Source: a virus
Virus record (IMG/VR): IMGVR_UViG_3300027386_000002
Location: 1 to 39,409 of that record
Strand: one strand, 5' to 3'
Length of the DNA: 39,409 nt
Shown: piece after piece, positions 1 to 39,409 of the stretch
Layout: every line of letters starts with the position of its first letter
Numbering within the stretch: the stretch's first letter is position 1
The notes under the pieces: model-generated
Databases searched by the model: none
What the model was told of the DNA's origin: nothing
What the model saw: the letters and a program-made list of their open reading frames with translations, nothing else
Made by a program: the position numbers and the translations under genes

Positions 1-99
1 CTAACCAGCGGCGTGGATACGTGGATAGTGATGTGGATAAGCGGCGCTATTATGCCCGACTCGACGGGGGCTTGTTCCATATCCCTCGACAGCAATAGT
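1..99. repeat. Terminal 99-bp overlap identical to 39311-39409; circular or terminally redundant genome with a true unit of about 39310 bp
   Basis: The first 99 nt (ctaaccagcggcgtggatacg...cagcaatagt) recur exactly at the window end. An exact fixed-length overlap is typical of a circularised assembly. Confidence 0.9.
13..40 (+). repeat. Three direct GTGGATA heptamers upstream of conserved element copy A
   Basis: gtggatac at 13-20, gtggatag at 21-28 and gtggataa at 33-40. A related pair (gtggatgg, gtggataa) precedes copy C at 23340-23365. Confidence 0.7.
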
Positions 100-3156: not shown

Positions 3157-3909
3157 TTACACCACCAGCGTTTCTCGTATCGTCAGGGACGCATTAATCA
3201 GCTTGGAGAACCTCTCTTCGGCAATATTGAGTCCCCCTCCTCCTTCCTGTCCTCCCCCCAGTTGCCCATAGATCCACACATCGTCATCATTGACCATCAC
3301 CGTCCCATATTCGCCTGCTTCGAGCACCACCGTTTCAATCTCATCGCGCTGTCCATCCCTGAGCTTCTCCCACTGTATCTGCATCGTTCTCCAGACCCCG
3401 ATGGCGGCGGCTCCATCCTGCAGCCCTTCCCTTGTCGGCGCGAAGCCCAGCAGCGAGTTAAACACATTGACGCGTGCCGGTTGTGCGTTCAGCTCCACCA
3501 GCCTCCCCGTCACCACTCGGGCGCACTCCAGCCGTCCCCCCTCATCCGTTTGCGGGAACGCGATACGCACCTCATCGACAGCGCTCCTCGTCCGGACCGT
3601 AGCCACAAAGACGCGCCTTGAGTCATCGACCGTCAGGATGAGCGTTTCGATGATCCTGTTATTGTTGAGCAGCATCACCGTCGCGTCTCCCAGCAGGTTA
3701 CAGCCCACGATCCCGACGAAGTCGATCACGTTTCGCCCTCTCTTCAGCATCGTGGCCGTATAGACTCGTTGTTCATCGGCGTGCCGTGTGATCATCTTCC
3801 TTCTGAGGCTTGGCGTGGCCAGATTATCGGCCAGGCTGCCCGTAGCCAGCTCATTAGGCGTCAGCGTCACCCTTTGGAATGGGAAGACCGTACCAAAGGC
3901 CAGTGCCAT
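3157..3909 (-). CDS. Virion/tail structural protein (250 aa), paralog of the 37486-38256 product
   Basis: The track ORF starts at TTG 3927, whereas ATG 3909 has GGAG 8 nt upstream. The blocks MALAFGTVFPF, LRRKMIT, IDFVGIV, RLECARVVTGRLV and W..L...QRDEI align with MAISLATSFPF, LRRRLIT, INFVSII, RLETALIIAGELV and W..L...ERDEL of the paralog. Confidence 0.75.
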   Translation of the reverse strand: MALAFGTVFPFQRVTLTPNELATGSLADNLATPSLRRKMITRHADEQRVYTATMLKRGRNVIDFVGIVGCNLLGDATVMLLNNNRIIETLILTVDDSRRVFVATVRTRSAVDEVRIAFPQTDEGGRLECARVVTGRLVELNAQPARVNVFNSLLGFAPTREGLQDGAAAIGVWRTMQIQWEKLRDGQRDEIETVVLEAGEYGTVMVNDDDVWIYGQLGGGQEGGGGLNIAEERFSKLINASLTIRETLVV

Positions 3910-13429: not shown

Positions 13430-13837
13430 ATGGAAAGTCAGAAGGAAAGAATCCTAATGGCAGTGCTTGACCGGCTGCTAAGCTCGGACGACGAGGGCCA
13501 AGCCGAACGGGAGCGGCCAACCATAGCCACCAGAATCCCCATCGGTTCATACGTGGTGGTTCGTTGCCGCGACGCTGGCGTCCATGCCGGTGAGTTGGTC
13601 GCGTGGAGTGGGCGGACGGCGGAGTTGAAGGAGTCGCGCCGGCTGTGGCGTTGGCATCAGGCGCGTGGCGGACTACTAAGCGGCGTGGCCAACTACGGTC
13701 TCAACCACGAAAAGAGCATAGTCGGCTCCCCGTGCGACATCATCTTGACCGAGACGTGCGAGATAATCGCTTGCACCCACGAGGCGGCGCAGTCAATCGC
13801 CAATGCTCCCAACTCGCACGAGGAAGAGCAGGAGTAA
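13430..13837 (+). CDS. Hypothetical protein (135 aa)
   Basis: GAAGGAG precedes the ATG. The sequence looks globular. Confidence 0.7.
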   Translation: MESQKERILMAVLDRLLSSDDEGQAERERPTIATRIPIGSYVVVRCRDAGVHAGELVAWSGRTAELKESRRLWRWHQARGGLLSGVANYGLNHEKSIVGSPCDIILTETCEIIACTHEAAQSIANAPNSHEEEQE

Positions 13838-13838
13838 A

Positions 13839-14108
13839 ATGGTTGATCCAGTAAGGCGCGGCGACGGCTATAGCAAGGGAGATGGCAACGGCAGCGGAAG
13901 GGGATGGGGAGACGGTAGCGGATTCGGTTCGGGATTCGGTTCGGGATTTGGCAACGGCGAGGGCAACGGAGGAGGTTGGGGAGACGGTAGCGGGAGCGAT
14001 GACGGTAGCGGTAGCGGTAGCGGTTCGGGATTTGGCAACGGCGAGAGCGACGGAGGAGGTTGGGGAGACGGTAGCGGGAGCGGGAGGGATGACGGTAGCG
14101 GAGACTAA
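13839..14108 (+). CDS. (Gly-X)n repeat protein with W/F at X positions (89 aa), cassette copy 1
   Basis: The sequence is MVDPVRRGDGYSKGDGNGSGRGWGDGSGFGSGFGSGFGNGEGNGGGWGDG... The SD is gcaggag. Its paralog lies at 15786-16145. Confidence 0.65.
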   Translation: MVDPVRRGDGYSKGDGNGSGRGWGDGSGFGSGFGSGFGNGEGNGGGWGDGSGSDDGSGSGSGSGFGNGESDGGGWGDGSGSGRDDGSGD

Positions 14109-14135
14109 CCACCACCAACCAACGGAGGAAGCACG

Positions 14136-14303
14136 ATGTCACGAGCAACATTGAACCACAAGCGCACAAGCTGGCGCAGACCATACCGGCCAAGGAAGTC
14201 GCTATGGAAGTGCCAAGGGTGCGGGAACGTGTATGACAGGTGGCGCGGGGATGTCCCCCAAGAGAACCGGCAGTGCGTCAATTGCCAGAAAGGAGGTGAG
14301 TGA
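14136..14303 (+). CDS. Zinc-ribbon protein (55 aa), cassette copy 1
   Basis: GGAGG precedes the ATG. The segment KSLWKCQGCGNVYDRWRGDVPQENRQCVNCQKGG is conserved in the paralog at 16138-16269, with many synonymous differences between the two copies. Confidence 0.7.
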   Translation: MSRATLNHKRTSWRRPYRPRKSLWKCQGCGNVYDRWRGDVPQENRQCVNCQKGGE

Positions 14304-15214
14304 TGAAGGAGAAACAGCAGGACGTAATCGTCGTCGATCCGTCCGAGGTCGAAGTAGTGCAGACCCGTCCAGCGACCAAGGAAGAGATTCAGCAGATCCA
14401 GGCCGACGAGTTCAACAAGCAGGCGATGGACCCGCGCACCTTTGAGCTGGCGGTCAACCAGAACGGCCACCTATCCGCCGAGGAAAACATGCTCATCAAG
14501 GTGGACGCACTGCGCGGTCTCATCTCGGTGACGATGGGCGCAGCCGAGCGCGTTCAAGCCGAGGCCACCTTGGAAGGCATCAAGGCACTGGCGCGGAAGC
14601 TCAAGTTGCCCAAGCTGGAAAAGGAATGCGCGACCATGATCTTGGATTGCAAGCGGGTGCTGGTGTTGCAGAATCCGCCCATGCCGAAGAAGGAGAGCGC
14701 GAAGAAGGCCAGAGAGATCAATCATGGAAATTCTTCGACTAGTCCTAACATTCAAGTCGAAGAATCCGAGCCGGACGAGAAGCCCACGCCACAGATGCGA
14801 GCAGCCTTTCGCGACGAGCACGGCAAAGACCTAACCGACGTCGAATGGGAGGAGGTCAAGACCGAGAACCTGAGCGACGAGACCGCGAGACCGATGACCG
14901 TATCCGGCCTACGCGACAGGCGAGCAAAGCGCAAGAACGAACTCGACGGCGGCCAGCGCAAGACCAAAGTAGAGCACAACGAAGAGCGACGCGAGAGCAT
15001 CAACAACCACGTCTTAGTCATCCAGCGCGGCAAGGAGGTACCGGCACTGGGTGGAATCTTGAGAGTAACGCGCGACCAGTTCAAGAATGAAGGAGCACGG
15101 GGCCACGACCAAGCCCAATACGAGGCCGTGGCCACCGTGTATCGACTCAAGGGCAACGACACCCCTGCGACCGACGTAGAGGAGACCATGCCCATGTTTC
15201 CAGAAGGAGCCTAA
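14303..15214 (+). CDS. Hypothetical protein (303 aa)
   Basis: Its start forms a TGATG overlap with the upstream stop. It has a charged, Lys/Glu-rich central region. Confidence 0.7.
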   Translation: MKEKQQDVIVVDPSEVEVVQTRPATKEEIQQIQADEFNKQAMDPRTFELAVNQNGHLSAEENMLIKVDALRGLISVTMGAAERVQAEATLEGIKALARKLKLPKLEKECATMILDCKRVLVLQNPPMPKKESAKKAREINHGNSSTSPNIQVEESEPDEKPTPQMRAAFRDEHGKDLTDVEWEEVKTENLSDETARPMTVSGLRDRRAKRKNELDGGQRKTKVEHNEERRESINNHVLVIQRGKEVPALGGILRVTRDQFKNEGARGHDQAQYEAVATVYRLKGNDTPATDVEETMPMFPEGA

Positions 15215-15215
15215 C

Positions 15216-15611
15216 ATGGCACTACGAGGAATCGCCATCAATCAACGCACGTGCGCCAACACGGGTTGCACCAACACCGTCAGCGGACGGCGCATCTTCT
15301 GCTCAACCACATGCTGCAATGAGCACAACGCCTTTGGTGACGCAATCAGCAAAGGCAAGTACGCCATCTGCTCGATACCCGAGTGCAAGATGCCCTTCCG
15401 CACCAATCGTAGGAAAACCGGGCAGATCGGTCAACATGGCCTATGCGACCAGCACAACGACAAGCTGGCCCAGCTCGACAAAGCCAAGCCCGGTTTGTTA
15501 CCAGCATGGGGCGACAAGAACAACGCGCAGATCCTCTTGTTTGACGACGAGACGCCGCTGATGCTGGGAGAGGGCAACGGACACACAGACAACGGAAAGG
15601 AAGGTGAGTAA
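15216..15611 (+). CDS. Cys-rich zinc-finger protein (131 aa)
   Basis: It carries CANTGCTNTVSGRRIFCSTTCCNEHN and CSIPECKMPF...GLCDQHN. The FCS-type motif is related to those in 38814-39314. Confidence 0.7.
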   Translation: MALRGIAINQRTCANTGCTNTVSGRRIFCSTTCCNEHNAFGDAISKGKYAICSIPECKMPFRTNRRKTGQIGQHGLCDQHNDKLAQLDKAKPGLLPAWGDKNNAQILLFDDETPLMLGEGNGHTDNGKEGE

Positions 15612-15780
15612 TGAACGCAGCATATGGCATCATAGTAACGGCACTACTGGCCCTATCGGAACTCCCCGAGGGATAAACCGAATGCACCATTACCCGCGTC
15701 CCGCATTCGGCCGGCGAGGAGTTCGCGCCAAGCTGGATCGTAGAAGACAGCGACGGCTGCGGAATCAACAGAAAGGTAAG
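15611..15780 (+). pseudogene. Interrupted paralog of the 16337-16624 secreted Cys-rich protein, with an in-frame TAA at codon 22
   Basis: Both copies share the same SD and start context (ggaaggtgagtaATG). The sequence MNAAYGIIVTALLALSELPEG* compares with MKAAYGIIVTALLALSALPEGS..., where TAA replaces TCA. Downstream differences are mostly synonymous in this frame. Confidence 0.6.
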
Positions 15781-15785
15781 CGACA

Positions 15786-16145
15786 ATGGAAGGTTCCGAG
15801 CGCAGAGAAGCAATGCTAAACGGCGACGGCGACGGCGAGGGCAACGGGAGCGGTTGGGGTAACGGCTATGGAGACGGCAGCGGTTGGGGCAGCGGATACG
15901 GCGACGGATGCGGCAACGGATGCGGCAACGGATGCGGCAACGGGATAGGCGCAGGCAACGGGCGCGGTGACGGCTATGCCAGTGGCGCAGGAGACGGTCA
16001 CGGAGCCGGTTGGGGTAAAGGCGCAGGAGAAGGCGACGGCAAGGGAGACGGCTACGGAGAAGGCAACGGGTGGGGAGACGGATACGGCAGCGGCAGCGGC
16101 ATCAGCAACAGCATCAGCAACCCAAGGAGAGACAACGTTGAATAG
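15786..16145 (+). CDS. (Gly-X)n repeat protein with W/Y/C at X positions (119 aa), cassette copy 2
   Basis: The sequence contains GDGDGEGNGSGWGNGYGDGSGWGSGYGDGCGNGCGNGCGNG...GWGDGYGSGSG. Confidence 0.65.
   Translation: MEGSERREAMLNGDGDGEGNGSGWGNGYGDGSGWGSGYGDGCGNGCGNGCGNGIGAGNGRGDGYASGAGDGHGAGWGKGAGEGDGKGDGYGEGNGWGDGYGSGSGISNSISNPRRDNVE
15906..15941 (+). repeat. Perfect 3 x 12-nt tandem repeat (ggatgcggcaac) inside the Gly-X gene
   Basis: Three exact copies encode GCGN three times. Confidence 0.9.
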
Positions 16146-16269
16146 CAGGCGCAAAAAGTCGTTGTGGAAGTGCCCCGAATGCAAACACGTCTATGACCGT
16201 TGGCGCGGAGACGTTCCGCAGAAAGATAGAAAATGTGTTCACTGTCAAGCGAAGGGAGGTAATAAGTAG
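16138..16269 (+). CDS. Zinc-ribbon protein (43 aa from TTG), cassette copy 2
   Basis: AAGGAGA lies 7 nt upstream of TTG 16138. The sequence KSLWKCPECKHVYDRWRGDVPQKDRKCVHCQAKGG is conserved with copy 1. The start codon is uncertain. Confidence 0.6.
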   Translation: MNSRRKKSLWKCPECKHVYDRWRGDVPQKDRKCVHCQAKGGNK

Positions 16270-16336
16270 AGCAGAAAAGTAGTGTCTCCCCCGGCACTAG
16301 GTCGGGGGAGCACATCAACCAGAAGGAAGGTGAGTA

Positions 16337-16624
16337 ATGAAAGCAGCATATGGCATCATAGTAACGGCACTACTGGCCCTATCGGCACTCCCCGAGGGCT
16401 CAACCGAATGCACCATTACCCGCGTCCCGCATTCGGCCGGCGAGGAGTTCGCGCCGAGTTGGATAGTAGAAGACAGCGACGGGTGCGGATACAACAGAGG
16501 AGTTGATCCGTTCTACGTCACCCGGTGCTGGATTGAGTGCGAGAGCAATGGCGGCTACCAGTCCAGTGACCCCGAGTGCGAGGCGTTCGGCATCGTCAAG
16601 GAAGACGACGAGGAAGACGAATGA
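16337..16624 (+). CDS. Small secreted Cys-rich acidic protein (95 aa)
   Basis: It has a signal-peptide-like N-terminus (MKAAYGIIVTALLALSALPEG), five Cys and an acidic tail (KEDDEEDE). Confidence 0.65.
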   Translation: MKAAYGIIVTALLALSALPEGSTECTITRVPHSAGEEFAPSWIVEDSDGCGYNRGVDPFYVTRCWIECESNGGYQSSDPECEAFGIVKEDDEEDE

Positions 16625-17408: not shown

Positions 17409-17603
17409 GGGGCGGTGGCTCGACATCCGGGGCGGTGGCTTCGTCTAGTCCGCCAGTCATCGCCCCGGCCTCATTGAAGCGACGGGCACCGCAGATGGGT
17501 CGTTCTGGCTGCATTTTCTTTCCGGGGTGGAAACGCCCCGGCCTCATTGAAGCAAGCAAGCAAGCACCAACGAACTGGCGAGGGTCCACCTGTGCTCTTG
17601 CCT

Positions 17604-30984: not shown

Positions 30985-33900
30985 TTAAATGCCAAGGAAG
31001 TTAAAGAAGCGCCTAATGATTCCCTGAAGTGCCGGGTCGAATTCAAAATCGCCAAAGAAGCCGTCGTCGTTCCTCGGGGCCAAAGAAACCAGTATGCCGG
31101 TGCCGACAGTCGAGAAGGTGTTGGCTTCATGGGGAGCGAGCAAGATGGTAGTGACGCTGAGGCTGACGGGAACGGGTAGCTGAGCAAACTGCGCTTCAAA
31201 CGATTGGATGGTCTGATCGACGGCAGCCCTGTAAGAGCCAACGAACTGCTGGTAGTAGATACGCGCACCCACCTCATAGCCCTGGAAAGAGCCTTGGGGC
31301 TGGCGCAGTTGGGTGTCAATCGAATCGCGCATGCGGCCGGTTACGACTGGACAAAGCTCGCGCAACCGCTGTTCAACCAGCGCGGTGATCTGCATGAGGA
31401 ACTCGAGATTACTGCCTTCGAGGTGCGGCGGCACGAACTCAGTGGTGTTGGGCAAGAACCATACCTCAACGGAAGGGATGCTTTGGCCGTTATCATCGGC
31501 GGGACTTATCGCGGGGACGACGTTGAGGAAGCCCCCGTGGGTGAGGTTCTCTTTGAGGGCGTTTCCTTCCGCGATGGCCGTTGGGATGACGCTGTTGTAG
31601 TCGTCGTCGTCAATCGCGTCAGAGTGGTTCGATCCGATGATGAGGCCGAAGCGTTCGCCTTCTTGATAGGAGTAGATGCCAATGGTGACGTGGAGCAGGC
31701 TACCGGTCACGCCCCCTTGGATGATGCCGAGGATGGAGTTGGCGAGGTTTAGCGCGTCCGTAGCAATAGGGGTGTCGAAGTCGGCCGGGTCCAGCGATGG
31801 GCGAGGGTCGTAGTCTCTGTAGTTGTCCGTATCCGCATCGTCCGGGTCGCCACCAATGATATTGCCGTCTATGTCGTACACGGTGAACTCGCCGGTAGTC
31901 TCGTCCAAGACGGTGAAGTATCCAGTGGCCGGGTCATACGAGAAGTCAGGAGCACCTTCCATCAGGAAGAAGACGCCGTTGCGGTCGATGCCTATCCAGC
32001 GGTCGCCTATCGCGTCGTAGAAGTAGGGGAAGAACCGCTGCCCTATGTCGATGGGGCCCTGATCAACGCGGCCACCGGGCCTCTGACGGGGAACGCCCAT
32101 TTGCGGGGGGATGATGTTGAGGTCTTCGAGCGGGATGGGGTAGCCCTCCTCATCGACGATGACCGGGCGGCCATGCTGATCGAGTCCAATCCAATGGCCA
32201 ATCGTATCGTCGTAATAGATATCGCCGACGTAGGTGTCCGGATCATATTCATCGATGCCGCCGTCGCCAGTTCGGTCTTCCGGGCGGGTTATGTTGGCCC
32301 ATATCGGGTTGCCATTGTCGTCCGTGCCCACCTGTTCGCCGCCGGGGAAGTAGCCTTCGAGGTTCGCTTGGACGACGTGGCGGCCACCGGACTGTTCCTG
32401 GACGAAGTGCCCAATCTCCGGGTCGTAATACATGTTATCGGGCAGCGTGGCGAACATCTGGGCGAGGCGTTGGCGTCCATTGGGCGTCGAGTCGTCCGGC
32501 AGCTCGGTAATGGGTATCGGCGGAGTGCCGTCCGTGAACTCCGCCCGGTCTATCTCGACATAGCCCCGGTTAGAGTCGTAGAAGTAGAGCGTCGGATCTG
32601 ATCCGCCGAGCGGGTTCCTTGGGCTGTCGAATGCACCCCGGGGCGGACGGCCTTCGGTATCGAAGTGGTCTGAGAAGTCCGCTTGAATGACGTGGCGGCC
32701 TTGTGAGTCTATCTCAATGAAGTGCCCAATCTCCGGATCGTAATAGACGTTATCCGGCAGGCTGGAGAACAGGTTGGCGAGGGCGCGGCGTCCGGCGGGC
32801 GTGCTGGCGTCCGGCAACTCCGTGCGGGGGATGGGGCCTTCGCCGTCGGAAAACTCACTGCGATCTATCCTGTAGAGTCCGACGTTCGGGTCGTAGTAGT
32901 AGAGGTCGGGCTGGGCCGGGGAGGCGTCGAAAGAAGGATCGGGCCGATCTTCGTCAACCGGAGTGCCGCCACCGCCACCGGTATCGCCAGTGCCACCGGT
33001 ATCGCCGCTACCAGGAACATCGCTCCTGCCAGTGCCACCGGTATCACCGCTGCCAGTACCGCCCGGGTCGCCGTAATCGTATATGATGACCACGTTGCGG
33101 GGATCAATATCCAAATGGAGGATTTGGAGATAAAGAACAATGACATATTCAATCTCGCTCTCGTGGACTGGCCAGTCGGGGCGACCATAGACGGTGGAAA
33201 CAAGGTCAGAATAGCGTACCTGTAATTCAACGTCGTCGTCGTCATCTACTGTCGTGGGCTTGGCCGCGATGAAGCCAGCGGGATTGGCACCCGGGCTCTC
33301 ATCCTCGTCGTCATCATCGTCGTCCGAGGGGGTCTGGCCTAACGTTCCTCCTTGCTGAATCTCGATCTGACGGCGACGTTCATCCTCTTCACGCTGTCTG
33401 CGCCGCCGATCCTCTTCCTCTTGTTGACGCCGTAGAATCTCTTGCTCTATAAGCTCCTGTCGGCGTCGTTCCTCTTCGGCGCGCCGCCGGTCTTCTTCCG
33501 CTTGGCGGCGTCGTTCGGCCTCCGCTGCTTGGCGGCGTCGTATCTCATCTTCCAGCGCTTGCAGGCGACGCCGTTCTTCTTCGGCCTCCTCTTCGCGCCT
33601 GCGTTCTTCTTCCTCGCGACGCCGCCGTTCCTCTTCTTCTTCCTGTTCACGCCGCCGGCGGTCCGCCTCCTCCTGTGCCCGTCGTTCGCGCCGCCGTCTA
33701 TCCGCCTCCTGCTGTGCACGTCGTCGCCGGTCGGCCTCTTCCTGTGCACGTCGTTCGCGCTCTTCTTGTTCGCGTTGCTCTCGTTCGCGCCGGCGGCGGT
33801 CGGCCTCCTCCTGGATCAGTCTATCCCGCTCCTCCCGGTCTCGGTCGCGCTGTTCTTGTTCGCGACGCTCTCGTTCCTCTTGTTCGCGCCGCCGCCGTTC

Positions 33901-34581
33901 CGCTTCTTGTTCGCGCCGTTCCCGCTCTTCTTCCTCGCGCCGTTCCCGTTCCTCGCGCCGCCGCCGTTCCTCAATCTGACGGCGCATCTCCTCTTCGCGC
34001 CGACGACGATCCTCTAATTCGCGGTCTTCGCGTTCCTGCTCCGCTTCCCGCCGCCGGTCTTCTTCCTCCTCAGCCTCAAGACGTCGCCGTTCCTCTTCGG
34101 CTTCCCGTCGCTCCCGTTCAGCTTCGCGCTCCTCTTCCTCCCGTTCGCGCCGTTCATCTTCCTCTTCTTGACGCTGACGTTCCTCCTCATCATCATCGTC
34201 ATCACCAGAAGGGGTGCGGGGCTGGCCCAGTGTTCGCCGTTGTTCCGCTTCGATTCGACGCCGACGTTCTTCGGCCTCTCTTCGCGCCCTCAGTTCGCGT
34301 TGTCTGCGCTCCTGTTCCTCGTAGGCTTCTATAGCCGCACGGCGACGACGGTCGGCCTCATTTCGACGCCTATCTTCCGCCTGGCGCCTCTGAATCTCAA
34401 GGATAGGGTTAGAACCGCCGGCCGCTTCGTCCGAGTCGAAGCGCTCAAGGTCATCACCACCGGCGGGCTCGTCCGAGTCGAAGCGCTCAAGGTCATTGAG
34501 TTGACCGCCGCCAACGTCATCGGGGTCTTGGCCACTCGAACGGGTGATAATCACCTCGTTGGGATGAAACCAACGGGCCAT
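30985..34581 (-). CDS. Large virion protein (1198 aa): Glu/Arg-only helical segment, Gly-rich linker, tandem beta-hairpin repeat modules and a C-terminal globular domain; possible internal/ejection or tail-needle protein
   Basis: Its start forms a TGATG overlap with the upstream stop. Residues about 62-430 are almost exclusively E/R/Q/A/D. GDTGGTG repeats follow, then YYDPEIGHF-type repeats. The gene order does not fit a canonical tape measure. Confidence 0.7.
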   Translation of the reverse strand: MARWFHPNEVIITRSSGQDPDDVGGGQLNDLERFDSDEPAGGDDLERFDSDEAAGGSNPILEIQRRQAEDRRRNEADRRRRAAIEAYEEQERRQRELRARREAEERRRRIEAEQRRTLGQPRTPSGDDDDDEEERQRQEEEDERREREEEEREAERERREAEEERRRLEAEEEEDRRREAEQEREDRELEDRRRREEEMRRQIEERRRREERERREEEERERREQEAERRRREQEERERREQEQRDRDREERDRLIQEEADRRRREREQREQEERERRAQEEADRRRRAQQEADRRRRERRAQEEADRRRREQEEEEERRRREEEERRREEEAEEERRRLQALEDEIRRRQAAEAERRRQAEEDRRRAEEERRRQELIEQEILRRQQEEEDRRRRQREEDERRRQIEIQQGGTLGQTPSDDDDDDEDESPGANPAGFIAAKPTTVDDDDDVELQVRYSDLVSTVYGRPDWPVHESEIEYVIVLYLQILHLDIDPRNVVIIYDYGDPGGTGSGDTGGTGRSDVPGSGDTGGTGDTGGGGGTPVDEDRPDPSFDASPAQPDLYYYDPNVGLYRIDRSEFSDGEGPIPRTELPDASTPAGRRALANLFSSLPDNVYYDPEIGHFIEIDSQGRHVIQADFSDHFDTEGRPPRGAFDSPRNPLGGSDPTLYFYDSNRGYVEIDRAEFTDGTPPIPITELPDDSTPNGRQRLAQMFATLPDNMYYDPEIGHFVQEQSGGRHVVQANLEGYFPGGEQVGTDDNGNPIWANITRPEDRTGDGGIDEYDPDTYVGDIYYDDTIGHWIGLDQHGRPVIVDEEGYPIPLEDLNIIPPQMGVPRQRPGGRVDQGPIDIGQRFFPYFYDAIGDRWIGIDRNGVFFLMEGAPDFSYDPATGYFTVLDETTGEFTVYDIDGNIIGGDPDDADTDNYRDYDPRPSLDPADFDTPIATDALNLANSILGIIQGGVTGSLLHVTIGIYSYQEGERFGLIIGSNHSDAIDDDDYNSVIPTAIAEGNALKENLTHGGFLNVVPAISPADDNGQSIPSVEVWFLPNTTEFVPPHLEGSNLEFLMQITALVEQRLRELCPVVTGRMRDSIDTQLRQPQGSFQGYEVGARIYYQQFVGSYRAAVDQTIQSFEAQFAQLPVPVSLSVTTILLAPHEANTFSTVGTGILVSLAPRNDDGFFGDFEFDPALQGIIRRFFNFLGI

Positions 34582-38813: not shown

Positions 38814-39314
38814 ATGATGACCCAATGCGAAGGATGTAGCGTTCTAATAAGCCAGCCAGCAAAGGGAAGGCGTAGGAGATTCTGTAGCGATGCTTGTAGG
38901 AAAAGACTGCGTCGTATAGAGAACGGTCCTAACTATCCCGTAATAGAGTGCGCCAATGAAGGATGCACAGAGCGCTTTGAGAAGTGGAGCCATAACCACC
39001 GATTCTGTTCGGCTACCTGTAGGAATGCGGCCCAGTATCGGCGCAATAAGCCCCCATCAGAGGAAGTATGGATAGAGTGCGCTTCTGAATGGTGCAATGA
39101 GCATTTCAAGCGCGTCCACCCAAACCAGCGCTATTGTAGCGCTTCTTGTAGAGGCGGCGATATATCCATGTTCGGCGATCCATTGCCAGAAGATTGGGGA
39201 GAGCGGCTGGAGGAGAAGGCTAATCAGCGGCGAGCGTCTAATGGAAGACCCATAAAGCCCGGACAAGGATACTCTTTACCCTATCCGGGGCGAGCGGCTA
39301 ATGGAGAAGACTAA
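38814..39314 (+). CDS. Triple FCS/TRASH-like zinc-finger protein (166 aa)
   Basis: AGGAGG lies 5 nt before ATG 38814. It has three repeats of C-x2-C-x11-13-(F/Y)CS-x2-CR: CEGC...RFCSDACR, CANEGC...RFCSATCR and CASEWC...RYCSASCR. Confidence 0.7.
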   Translation: MMTQCEGCSVLISQPAKGRRRRFCSDACRKRLRRIENGPNYPVIECANEGCTERFEKWSHNHRFCSATCRNAAQYRRNKPPSEEVWIECASEWCNEHFKRVHPNQRYCSASCRGGDISMFGDPLPEDWGERLEEKANQRRASNGRPIKPGQGYSLPYPGRAANGED

Positions 39315-39409
39315 CCAGCGGCGTGGATACGTGGATAGTGATGTGGATAAGCGGCGCTATTATGCCCGACTCGACGGGGGCTTGTTCCATATCCCTCGAC
39401 AGCAATAGT
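39311..39409. repeat. Terminal 99-bp overlap identical to 1-99
   Basis: It is an exact duplicate of the window start and includes the first 45 nt of element copy A. Confidence 0.9.

Follow-up and report, generated by a model that had tools for sequence, protein, structure and literature searches.

A widespread phage gene pair of a DUF6948 protein and a Gly-X repeat protein, with a lineage-specific zinc ribbon

We analyzed a viral DNA stretch of 39,409 nucleotides (IMG/VR record IMGVR_UViG_3300027386_000002, positions 1 to 39,409; hereafter the window) that contains two genes for near-pure (Gly-X)n dipeptide-repeat proteins, GlyX-1 and GlyX-2. Each is followed by a gene for a small CxxC...CxxC zinc ribbon, ZnR-1 and ZnR-2 respectively, an arrangement that a preliminary description of the window had reported and that we confirm at the coordinates given below. 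GlyX genes are a real, conserved, widespread and undescribed class of small phage genes, and their constant partner is the DUF6948 gene upstream, not the zinc ribbon. The cassette made of a GlyX gene and a zinc ribbon is lineage-specific, and its ribbon is facultative. A full-text literature search returned nothing relevant on DUF6948/PF22253, on GlyX strings, or on Gly/Tyr-rich or Sm-like low-complexity proteins of phages, and as far as checked the DUF6948-GlyX module is undescribed.

The module was defined as a (Gly-X)n open reading frame (ORF) that starts at, or within a few nucleotides of, the stop codon of a DUF6948-like gene on the same strand. Scanning IMG/VR with the subfamily characterized by WGTxKGLGELAxxGP yielded 291 relatives, and a GlyX ORF was present in 61 of the 73 usable loci, that is, fetched loci with enough downstream DNA. 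The DUF6948-proper subfamily yielded 63 relatives, with a GlyX ORF in 48 of 52 usable loci. Both subfamilies together therefore carry a GlyX ORF in 109 of 125 loci (87%), mostly with a start between -3 and +8 of the DUF6948-like stop codon, and several of the apparent exceptions are short or frameshifted GlyX genes. Conversely, a hidden Markov model (HMM) built from eight upstream proteins identified 15 DUF6948-like genes in loci selected for GlyX, 13 to 14 of which lie directly upstream of a GlyX gene. Bacterial genome assemblies contain the pair in five of seven loci.

The repeat genes were also sought directly. A blastn comparison of the region with GenBank phages matched the repeat region to 128 records. 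Two of these were inspected, Rheinheimera phage Barba31A, where the gene is named ‘hypothetical protein’, and Myoviridae sp. ctGfd272, where it is annotated as lamprin (L001, 2958-3272); both genes consist of a leader and (GYGDGNG)n, and no zinc ribbon stands beside either. A degenerate DNA pattern for GWG[DN]GxG... matched at least 119 IMG/VR stretches, and 26 of the pattern-matched loci that were fetched contain small ORFs with a short shared leader and a (Gly-X)n core. The conservation of the repeat ORFs in relatives, proposed as a check in the preliminary description, is thus established, and it extends to hundreds of other phages.

The pair is found in cultured phages, including Pectobacterium phages such as Ymer, Dickeya phage Setonix, Ralstonia phage NK-7, Vibrio phage IKEMa6-1, a phage of Chlorobiaceae (green sulfur bacteria), Iodobacter phage phiPLPE and the Rheinheimera Barba phages. 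In phiPLPE (L283, EU876853), the GlyX ORF lies at about 1179-1409, after gp84, and is unannotated. In Ymer and in L211, a relative of the window, the pair stands as an island among tail genes that run on the other strand, and it therefore behaves as a self-contained module.

GlyX ORFs often stand in tandem, 2-10 paralogues to an array, and the members of an array share their leader. The long arrays comprise 10 genes in L079, nine in L126, seven in L100 and L075, six to seven in L062 and L055, five in L102 and four in L008, and array-bearing phages include contigs of 120-180 kb. The leader differs from array to array, and in some arrays the members have a C-terminal tag in common as well, as in MSNPGNG...GNGKGGSE. 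Repeats of the (GYGDGxG)n type are also found as C-terminal tails on other small domains (P0008, 181 amino acids with a DUF7666 domain; P0009; P0010), and one protein, P0061, is a natural fusion of DUF6948 to a Gly-rich tail that is looser than (GYGDGxG)n. Most neighbours of DUF6948 and GlyX genes encode small unknown proteins, and genes for replication, recombination, methylases, HNH proteins and regulators are interspersed among them; when 148 neighbouring proteins from about 85 loci were scanned with Pfam, no third conserved partner emerged.

The DUF6948 protein of the window is encoded at 13430..13837 on the plus strand (135 amino acids) and matches Pfam PF22253 above the gathering threshold (81.6 bits against a cutoff of 27, E 4.5e-23). 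We found 137 homologues, and all 120 of those listed carry PF22253. An AlphaFold2 model based on a 59-sequence alignment reached a predicted local distance difference test score (pLDDT) of 90.4. It consists of a helix at the N-terminus, then a disordered linker, then a small beta-barrel into which a further helix is inserted; apart from the first helix it contains five main strands, with the extra helix between strands 3 and 4. The Sm fold consists of an N-terminal helix and a strongly bent five-stranded beta-sheet. When the model was compared with the PDB using Foldseek, the top 50 matches were all Sm/LSm-type or Sm-like chains (E 0.007-0.04, template modelling (TM) score 0.3-0.7, best target-normalized TM score 0.69), including the LSm domain of LSm14, an archaeal SmAP, the Sm-like Naa38 subunit of NatC and a metagenomic Sm-like protein. 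In a viral structure library, DUF6948 proper is connected with the Barba subfamily protein and, less strongly, with phage proteins labelled Sm-like or Hfq-like. A sequence search of the PDB returned no relative of DUF6948, and hence no solved Sm or Hfq protein. The predicted fold of DUF6948 is accordingly described here as nearest to Sm/LSm at the level of the model.

Class statistics were derived from 141 GlyX proteins. Their median length is 85 amino acids and their median net charge -8, and the repeat usually runs to the C-terminus. Gly accounts for 40% of residues, followed by Tyr (14%), Asp (11%), Ser (8%) and Asn (7%); Trp, which many members lack altogether, and Cys each account for 0.7%. 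Within the repeats, the X positions are occupied by Tyr (35%), Asp (24%), Ser (15%) and Asn (14%), with Trp again at 0.7%, and there are 25 Asp for every Glu. The conserved leaders vary in step with the DUF6948 subfamily: in one subfamily they have a median of 16 amino acids, often contain E-[ED]-x-Q-x-S and precede Asn-rich cores, whereas in the other they have a median of 8 amino acids, none contains this motif, and the cores are Ser-rich.

Codon usage in the repeats was compared with that of long ORFs on the same contigs. GGC encodes 77% of Gly in the repeats compared to 42% in the background, TCC and TCT together 85% of Ser compared to 29%, GAC 81% of Asp compared to 50%, AAC 78% of Asn compared to 55%, and TAC 77% of Tyr compared to 53%. 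This codon bias, together with the preference for Asp over Glu, points to selection on the GlyX protein and possibly to high expression. The repeat itself changes rapidly. Compared with L207, the closest relative of the window, DUF6948 is 92% identical in nucleotides, SP (the gene downstream of the zinc ribbons, described below) 91% and ZnR-1 87%, but GlyX only 66%, with 39 gap columns; by this comparison, GlyX evolves much faster than its flanks. Among near-identical Barba phages, GlyX length differences keep the frame (69, 79 and 83 amino acids).

In the window, GlyX-1 (13839..14108, plus strand) encodes 89 amino acids, 39 of them Gly, with a net charge of -9; a short leader, MVDPVRRG, precedes the (Gly-X)n stretch. 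A single nucleotide separates its ATG, which is served by an AGGAG ribosome-binding site, from the DUF6948 stop codon (13835-13837), and this places GlyX-1 in the canonical position and inside the module definition. GlyX-2 (15786..16145, plus strand) encodes 119 amino acids, 47 of them Gly, with the leader MEGSERREAMLNG, a (Gly-X)n stretch, a short non-repeat tail and a net charge of -10; it falls outside the module definition. These two genes contain the only alternating-Gly stretches in a six-frame translation of the whole 39.4-kb window. All four Gly codons are used in the two stretches, as expected for selection on the protein. The genes contain tandem DNA repeats of 6, 12, 30 and 84 nt, and GlyX-2 includes a core segment rich in Gly, Ser and Cys, for example GCGNGCGNGCG. 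The preliminary description had W, F, Y or C interspersed at the X positions. Aromatic residues are indeed present, including the Trp of three GWG motifs in GlyX-1 and four in GlyX-2, but they are a minority (8-9 per protein), and Ser, Asp and Asn dominate. Two sets of database matches to GlyX-2 were discarded: a Pfam TrAA12 match that is compositional and below cutoff, and four weak compositional matches from a homology search, which are repeat tails on other domains such as DUF7666.

ZnR-1 (14136..14303, plus strand) is a 55-amino-acid C4 zinc ribbon with the cysteine spacing C26-x2-C29-x17-C47-x2-C50, and ZnR-2 (16138..16269, plus strand) has the same spacing. Both are strongly basic, with a net charge of +9 and an isoelectric point (pI) of about 10. 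ZnR-2 measures 43 amino acids only with a TTG start at 16138, which overlaps the GlyX-2 stop; AAGGAG lies 8 nt upstream, and an independent gene caller agrees with this start. Compared to ZnR-1, ZnR-2 is truncated at its 5' end, its TTG corresponding to the Leu6 codon of ZnR-1, and the former 5' end of the ribbon is overprinted by the non-repeat tail of GlyX-2. Shine-Dalgarno sequences are present at all four GlyX and ZnR genes.

The two ribbons share the core KSLWKC..C..VYDRWRGDVPQ..R.CV.CQ, which is 63% identical in protein and 74% in DNA, and tblastn between the copies gives E values of about 1e-12 to 2e-13. Over 38 aligned codons there are 13 replacements, and the remaining 25 conserved residues are encoded by 15 differing and 10 identical codons. 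Synonymous differences are saturated (proportion of synonymous differences, pS, above 0.75), while the nonsynonymous distance (dN) is 0.17-0.23; between ZnR-1 and its orthologue in a related phage, the ratio of nonsynonymous to synonymous distance (dN/dS) is 0.23 at 87% amino acid identity. Saturation combined with a low dN indicates that the copies are true, old paralogues under purifying selection. The preliminary description had reached the same view of the age and constraint of the ribbons, which these values uphold. It had overstated the matter in saying that nearly every conserved codon differs: 15 of 25 do and 10 do not, as saturation predicts.

Relatives of the ribbons are scarce. A word-indexed search of 5.8 billion proteins with ZnR returned only the query itself. 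A HMMER search of 1.84 billion representative proteins returned ZnR-2 and one 63-amino-acid relative, P0003; large multi-finger proteins among the matches were rejected as repeats of unrelated fingers. To these relatives, tblastn adds the ZnR-1 orthologue in a close relative of the window. Scans of IMG/VR with ZnR and SP alignments found nothing, and a metagenome scan with ZnR picked up nothing but the zinc ribbon at the N-terminus of a bacterial RadA, which was set aside as a match between generic ribbons. The ribbon is almost an orphan: a lineage-specific, strongly basic and constrained small C4 protein.

Among described zinc proteins, the C4 fingers of TraR/DksA from phages and plasmids share with ZnR the CxxC-17-CxxC spacing, the C-V-x-C-Q ending, the small size and the phage context. 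ZnR-1 matches TIGR02419 at E 2.9e-4, but its 21.3 bits are far below the family cutoff of 59.7, and it matches phrog_54 at E 0.0065; ZnR-2 has no TraR-type profile match at all, and Pfam zf-dskA_traR was not matched at E ≤ 0.1. The ribbons further differ from TraR/DksA in their basic N-termini (RRPYRPRK; SRRKK), where that family has an N-terminal helix whose acidic coiled-coil tip reaches into the secondary channel of RNA polymerase, a segment that ZnR-2 lacks, and no TraR or DksA chain was among the PDB sequence-search matches to ZnR. The first knuckle, W-x-C-x-x-C-G-x-x-Y-D-x-x-x-G-D, can also be aligned with rubredoxin at a non-significant E of 0.011-0.9, but the knuckles are 17 residues apart in ZnR compared to about 29 in rubredoxin, and the second half does not align.

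The preliminary description had treated the GlyX gene and the ribbon as a general two-gene unit, a view that does not survive the wider comparison, in which the two do not co-occur outside this lineage. In its strongest form, this view holds that GlyX and ZnR are an obligate functional cassette, for example a scaffold with its regulator or an effector with its neutralizer, that was duplicated and kept in both copies by selection. It gains from the presence of the pair in both copies and at the orthologous locus of L207, from the overlap of the ZnR-2 start with the GlyX-2 stop, from the complementary charges (-9/-10 for GlyX, +9/+9 for ZnR) and from the purifying selection on the ribbon. However, L210, a more distant relative, has tandem orthologues of GlyX-1 and GlyX-2, while its contig is devoid of ZnR. 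The distant ZnR relative P0003 is encoded on a 6.4-kb contig, L005, with the order SP homologue, 97-amino-acid non-repeat acidic protein (pI 4.5), ZnR and 67-amino-acid gene, so that the ribbon travels with SP and an acidic upstream neighbour and not specifically with GlyX. Among the 52 DUF6948-proper loci screened, three have a small CxxC...CxxC ORF after GlyX; two of these were taken to be artefacts of reading one sequence in alternative frames, and the third (L253) bears no relation to ZnR. Searching with the ZnR proteins by tblastn gave no match in any IMG/VR module locus, and the ribbon is nearly an orphan among 1.8 billion representative proteins. We consider an obligate cassette unlikely.

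The history of the locus can be followed in relatives reached through DUF6948 homologues. L207, L208 and L209 (82-94% nucleotide identity) contain DUF6948, GlyX, an orthologue of ZnR-1 (with a TTG start, and uncalled) and SP. L210 (75-79% nucleotide identity) contains DUF6948, a GlyX gene with the GlyX-2-type leader MEGSECKEAILSG, a GlyX gene with the GlyX-1-type leader MTDPVEKG, and SP. In L211, DUF6948 is followed by a 44-amino-acid GlyX gene, and in L212 by a degenerate, uncalled GlyX-type repeat; neither has a ZnR. Because both leader types are present in L210, the GlyX paralogues are older than the present arrangement, and the ribbon is facultative. L210 also has a 163-nt spacer between DUF6948 and its first GlyX gene (3734-3896) with two CCTCCCGCGCGGG...TTGAAA motifs and an (AAAC)n run, which is absent from the window and could be a regulatory element.

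In the window, the genes follow each other on the plus strand in the order VRR-NUC-like gene, Dam methylase, DUF6948, GlyX-1, ZnR-1, a 303-amino-acid gene (14303..15214) without family match, a Cys/His-rich 131-amino-acid gene (15216..15611), a truncated gene fragment, GlyX-2, ZnR-2 and SP (16337..16624). SP encodes 95 amino acids and is acidic and Cys-rich, with an N-terminal hydrophobic helix. L207 lacks a 2.03-kb block corresponding to 14304-16336, of which the 303-amino-acid gene is the first gene, and SP there directly follows the ZnR-1 orthologue. The second cassette (543 nt) is bracketed by 183-nt direct repeats with 93% identity, both on the plus strand. Copy A (15590..15772) comprises the ribosome-binding site and first 53 codons of SP, and copy B (16316..16498) is the 5' end of the intact SP gene. 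Copy A is disabled by an in-frame TAA at SP codon 22 (ORF 15612-15677), which is also present in an independent sample (L006). Counted directly from the alignment, copy A and intact SP differ by five synonymous and three replacement changes. Copy A therefore stems from a functional, diverged SP allele, which points to an exchange by recombination among related phages and not to a duplication in place that later decayed. The absence of the block from the closest relative and the truncated duplicate of the next gene indicate that the second GlyX-ZnR pair was placed by recombination. Of the duplication put forward in the preliminary description, the old paralogy stands, whereas duplication in place is too simple for a mosaic block with a recombination scar. 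The 131-amino-acid gene lies inside the block and is absent from L207 and L210; its product has a marginal HNH match in PHROGs (E 0.009) and, if this match is real, could be a homing-type endonuclease that explains the mobility of the block.

A 99-bp overlap between the ends of the window (1-99 and 39311-39409) shows that it is a complete, circularly assembled phage genome; the GC content is 60%. Its recognizable genes include a Dda-like helicase, a primase and a tail fibre, and the GlyX and ZnR genes lie within a plus-strand run of small early/replication-region genes. No significant match to the GlyX, ZnR, SP, 303- or 131-amino-acid proteins came from PHROGs, Pfam, NCBIfam or PADLOC, and Rfam detected no RNA family in the GlyX/ZnR region. 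Promoter- and terminator-like sites around the cassettes are at the level of shuffled sequence, with no consistent promoter or terminator.

Several features elsewhere in the genome were recorded. Two Rfam CRISPR-DR16 (RF01330) matches lie at 17422-17553 on the plus strand, in a 254-nt gap before the helicase gene. The first (17422-17480; 35.6 bits, at the gathering score) has a 25-nt loop insertion, and the second (17517-17553; 31.3 bits) is a canonical 37-nt repeat; they are 36 nt apart, with a spacer-like segment between them, and their 3' halves are identical 20-mers (family D8). By sequence, the pair appears to be a phage-borne mini CRISPR array or two solitary repeat units, and its role is possibly that of an RNA anti-CRISPR or a mini-array. 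In the terminal overlap, positions 12-40 contain CGTGGATA twice in tandem and, at 32-40, a single perfect DnaA box, TTATCCACA; the number of DnaA boxes in the genome is at chance level, and only their local clustering stands out. Dense tandem repeats of 15-69 nt occupy 33620-34146, inside an unassigned 1198-amino-acid minus-strand ORF (30985-34581), and a 68-nt unit is present in two copies with 96% identity near 1536-1668.

We are confident of the anatomy of the locus and of the module. What the module does is more tentative. We hypothesize that GlyX is a heavily translated, intrinsically disordered polypeptide serving as a detachable low-complexity tail for the Sm-like DUF6948 protein, whose barrel would be the docking site of the conserved leader. 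The acidic, aromatic repeat may then mimic nucleic acid on the Sm-like protein or compete with it; alternatively, it may provide multivalent sticker-and-spacer contacts that concentrate the complex. Such an action would fall in the early, replication-phase part of infection. In the lineage of the window, the +9 ribbon may be an added, charge-matched binder of the -9/-10 GlyX proteins or of nucleic acid. The matching charges of GlyX and ZnR and the acidic neighbour of the ZnR relative in L005 suggest that the ribbon binds an acidic partner. A more specific version, in which an Sm-like ring and a hypervariable, highly expressed acidic Tyr/Gly repeat polypeptide form a multivalent complex or condensate that captures host or phage RNA, single-stranded DNA or a host protein early in infection, with ZnR as an extra component in this lineage, seems to us improbable as it stands. 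The condensate or silk-like role raised in the preliminary description would fit the composition of GlyX. As a whole, the DUF6948-GlyX explanation is the best we can offer, and we would give it an even chance of being right, its mechanistic part being doubtful.

A number of observations weigh against this explanation. DUF6948 resembles Sm proteins weakly (Foldseek E ≥ 0.007), small beta-barrels are put to many different uses, and binding of DUF6948 to RNA, DNA or GlyX is putative. The arrays of L079, L102 and L008 have no DUF6948 gene within the DNA examined, and an HMM search of the window found none upstream of GlyX-2. The GlyX proteins of the window are atypical of their class, with W and F as well as Y and with mixed Gly codons. 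GlyX-1 modelled alone by AlphaFold2 gave a pLDDT of 47 with no secondary structure and no strands, a low single-sequence score that is no proof of disorder and is uninformative on assemblies. Slippage homogenization rather than expression could cause the codon bias. The net charge of -8 to -10 speaks against condensation of GlyX by itself unless a basic partner is present, and the charge pairing of ZnR draws on four genes from two lineages.

Other readings of GlyX were weighed against the same data. GlyX proteins could be hypervariable decoys or inhibitors of a host factor, acting in anti-defence or host takeover, with DUF6948 as a chaperone or co-factor and no nucleic acid involved. The much faster divergence of GlyX than of its flanks would suit such a role, as would the arrays of 2-10 paralogues with shared leaders, the moron-like islands that the pair can form, and the location in accessory early regions beside methylases, Erf/Sak and HNH genes, in one locus with an Acb2/Tad1-like gene. 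Yet slippage alone would be expected to make low-complexity repeats change fast, the genomic context suggests no target, and PHROGs and PADLOC gave no match to a known anti-defence or defence family; we regard this reading as rather unlikely. The preliminary description had suggested a particular decoy, a GW/WG Argonaute hook, on which the GWG motifs of GlyX-1 and GlyX-2 (three and four) would bear. Across the 141 class members, however, Trp makes up 0.7% both of residues and of X positions against 35% of X for Tyr, the dominant aromatic residue, W is not conserved, and no genomic context examined has a link to prokaryotic Argonaute, which leaves the hook barely credible.

A leader (median 8-16 amino acids) followed by a repetitive Gly-X core, in tandem paralogue arrays with conserved leaders and with Gly/Ser/Cys-rich cores such as that in GlyX-2, is also reminiscent of precursors of ribosomally made, modified peptides or bacteriocins such as microcin B17. 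Such precursors would call for processing genes, but the 148 neighbouring proteins include no recurrent modifying enzyme, protease or exporter and only two marginal radical-SAM matches, and PHROGs, Pfam and NCBIfam found no modifying enzyme, leader protease or exporter in the window. With Cys at 0.7% of class residues and an 85-amino-acid beta-barrel domain, not an enzyme, as the constant partner, we find a precursor role very unlikely. Finally, the repeats could act as DNA or RNA, as iterons or an origin, G-rich structures or an Sm-binding mRNA platform, with the open frame incidental. The tandem 6/12/30/84-nt repeats, their location in a replication-gene region and the homogeneous GGC-NNC hexamer pattern across the class are compatible with this, but the ORFs are kept open with starts overlapping the upstream stop in about 87% of loci, leader peptides are conserved, the length differences among Barba phages keep the frame, and the third position of the Gly codons varies in the window. 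The idea that the GlyX mRNA carries an Hfq-type RNA motif, (RRN)n, was rejected because Ser is encoded by TCC/TCT and not by purine-rich AGY. A role of the repeats as nucleic acid alone is, on balance, highly improbable.

Known low-complexity systems offer partial parallels to the DUF6948-GlyX module. Eukaryotic Sm D1 and D3, and also LSm4, carry Gly-Arg dipeptide tails. FUS-type prion-like [G/S]Y[G/S] low-complexity domains are sticker-and-spacer condensate formers, and GlyX resembles them in composition, with about 14% Tyr in a Gly/Ser matrix and predicted disorder. GlyX differs from FUS in its strict Gly alternation, in being Asp/Asn-rich with almost no Gln and strongly net negative, and in being a free-standing protein of only about 85 amino acids. 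Silk fibroin, with its crystalline (Gly-Ala/Ser/Tyr)n repeats, and lamprin share with GlyX the Gly at every second residue and the presence of Tyr; in GlyX, however, X is polar, acidic or aromatic rather than Ala/Ser, the proteins are tiny, intracellular and of phage origin, and, as distinct from silk, AlphaFold2 predicts no beta-sheet for GlyX-1 from its single sequence.

The nearest known kind would be an Sm or Hfq protein with a Gly-rich tail, of which DUF6948-GlyX would be a split, acidic, Tyr-rich and phage-borne variant. The likeness consists in a small, predicted Sm-like beta-barrel combined with a Gly-rich repeat that contains aromatic and charged residues. In Acinetobacter Hfq, functional GGFGGQ repeats and an acidic tip on the Sm core tune RNA binding and autoregulation (PMC11617691), and the acidity of GlyX recalls this C-terminal tip, which autoregulates RNA binding (PMC11617691). 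Unlike these tails, GlyX is encoded separately, by a translationally coupled gene that supplies a leader of its own, and its repeat is a strict dipeptide, acidic and Tyr-rich, neither basic GR nor GGFGGQ. No similarity of DUF6948 to Hfq or Sm is detectable by sequence, and the module is phage-borne. A hexameric or heptameric ring and RNA binding by way of the Sm1 and Sm2 motifs characterize the known family and are putative for DUF6948.

Near-pure dipeptide-repeat proteins are usually dismissed as low-complexity noise and are often missed by gene callers and annotators. GlyX genes have been missed or misnamed publicly in just this way, the phiPLPE gene being unannotated and another labelled lamprin. 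The present analysis corrects the functional unit: GlyX pairs with DUF6948 first, and the zinc ribbon is a lineage-specific add-on. The module is present in hundreds of phage contigs and in cultured phages, with about 87% of loci coupled to the predicted Sm-like partner. The cultured phages provide a tractable handle on whether phages pair disordered sticker-and-spacer polypeptides with Sm-like proteins, and for what purpose. If the proposed complex is real, it would be a bacterial-virus counterpart of the Sm or LSm14 proteins with low-complexity tails.

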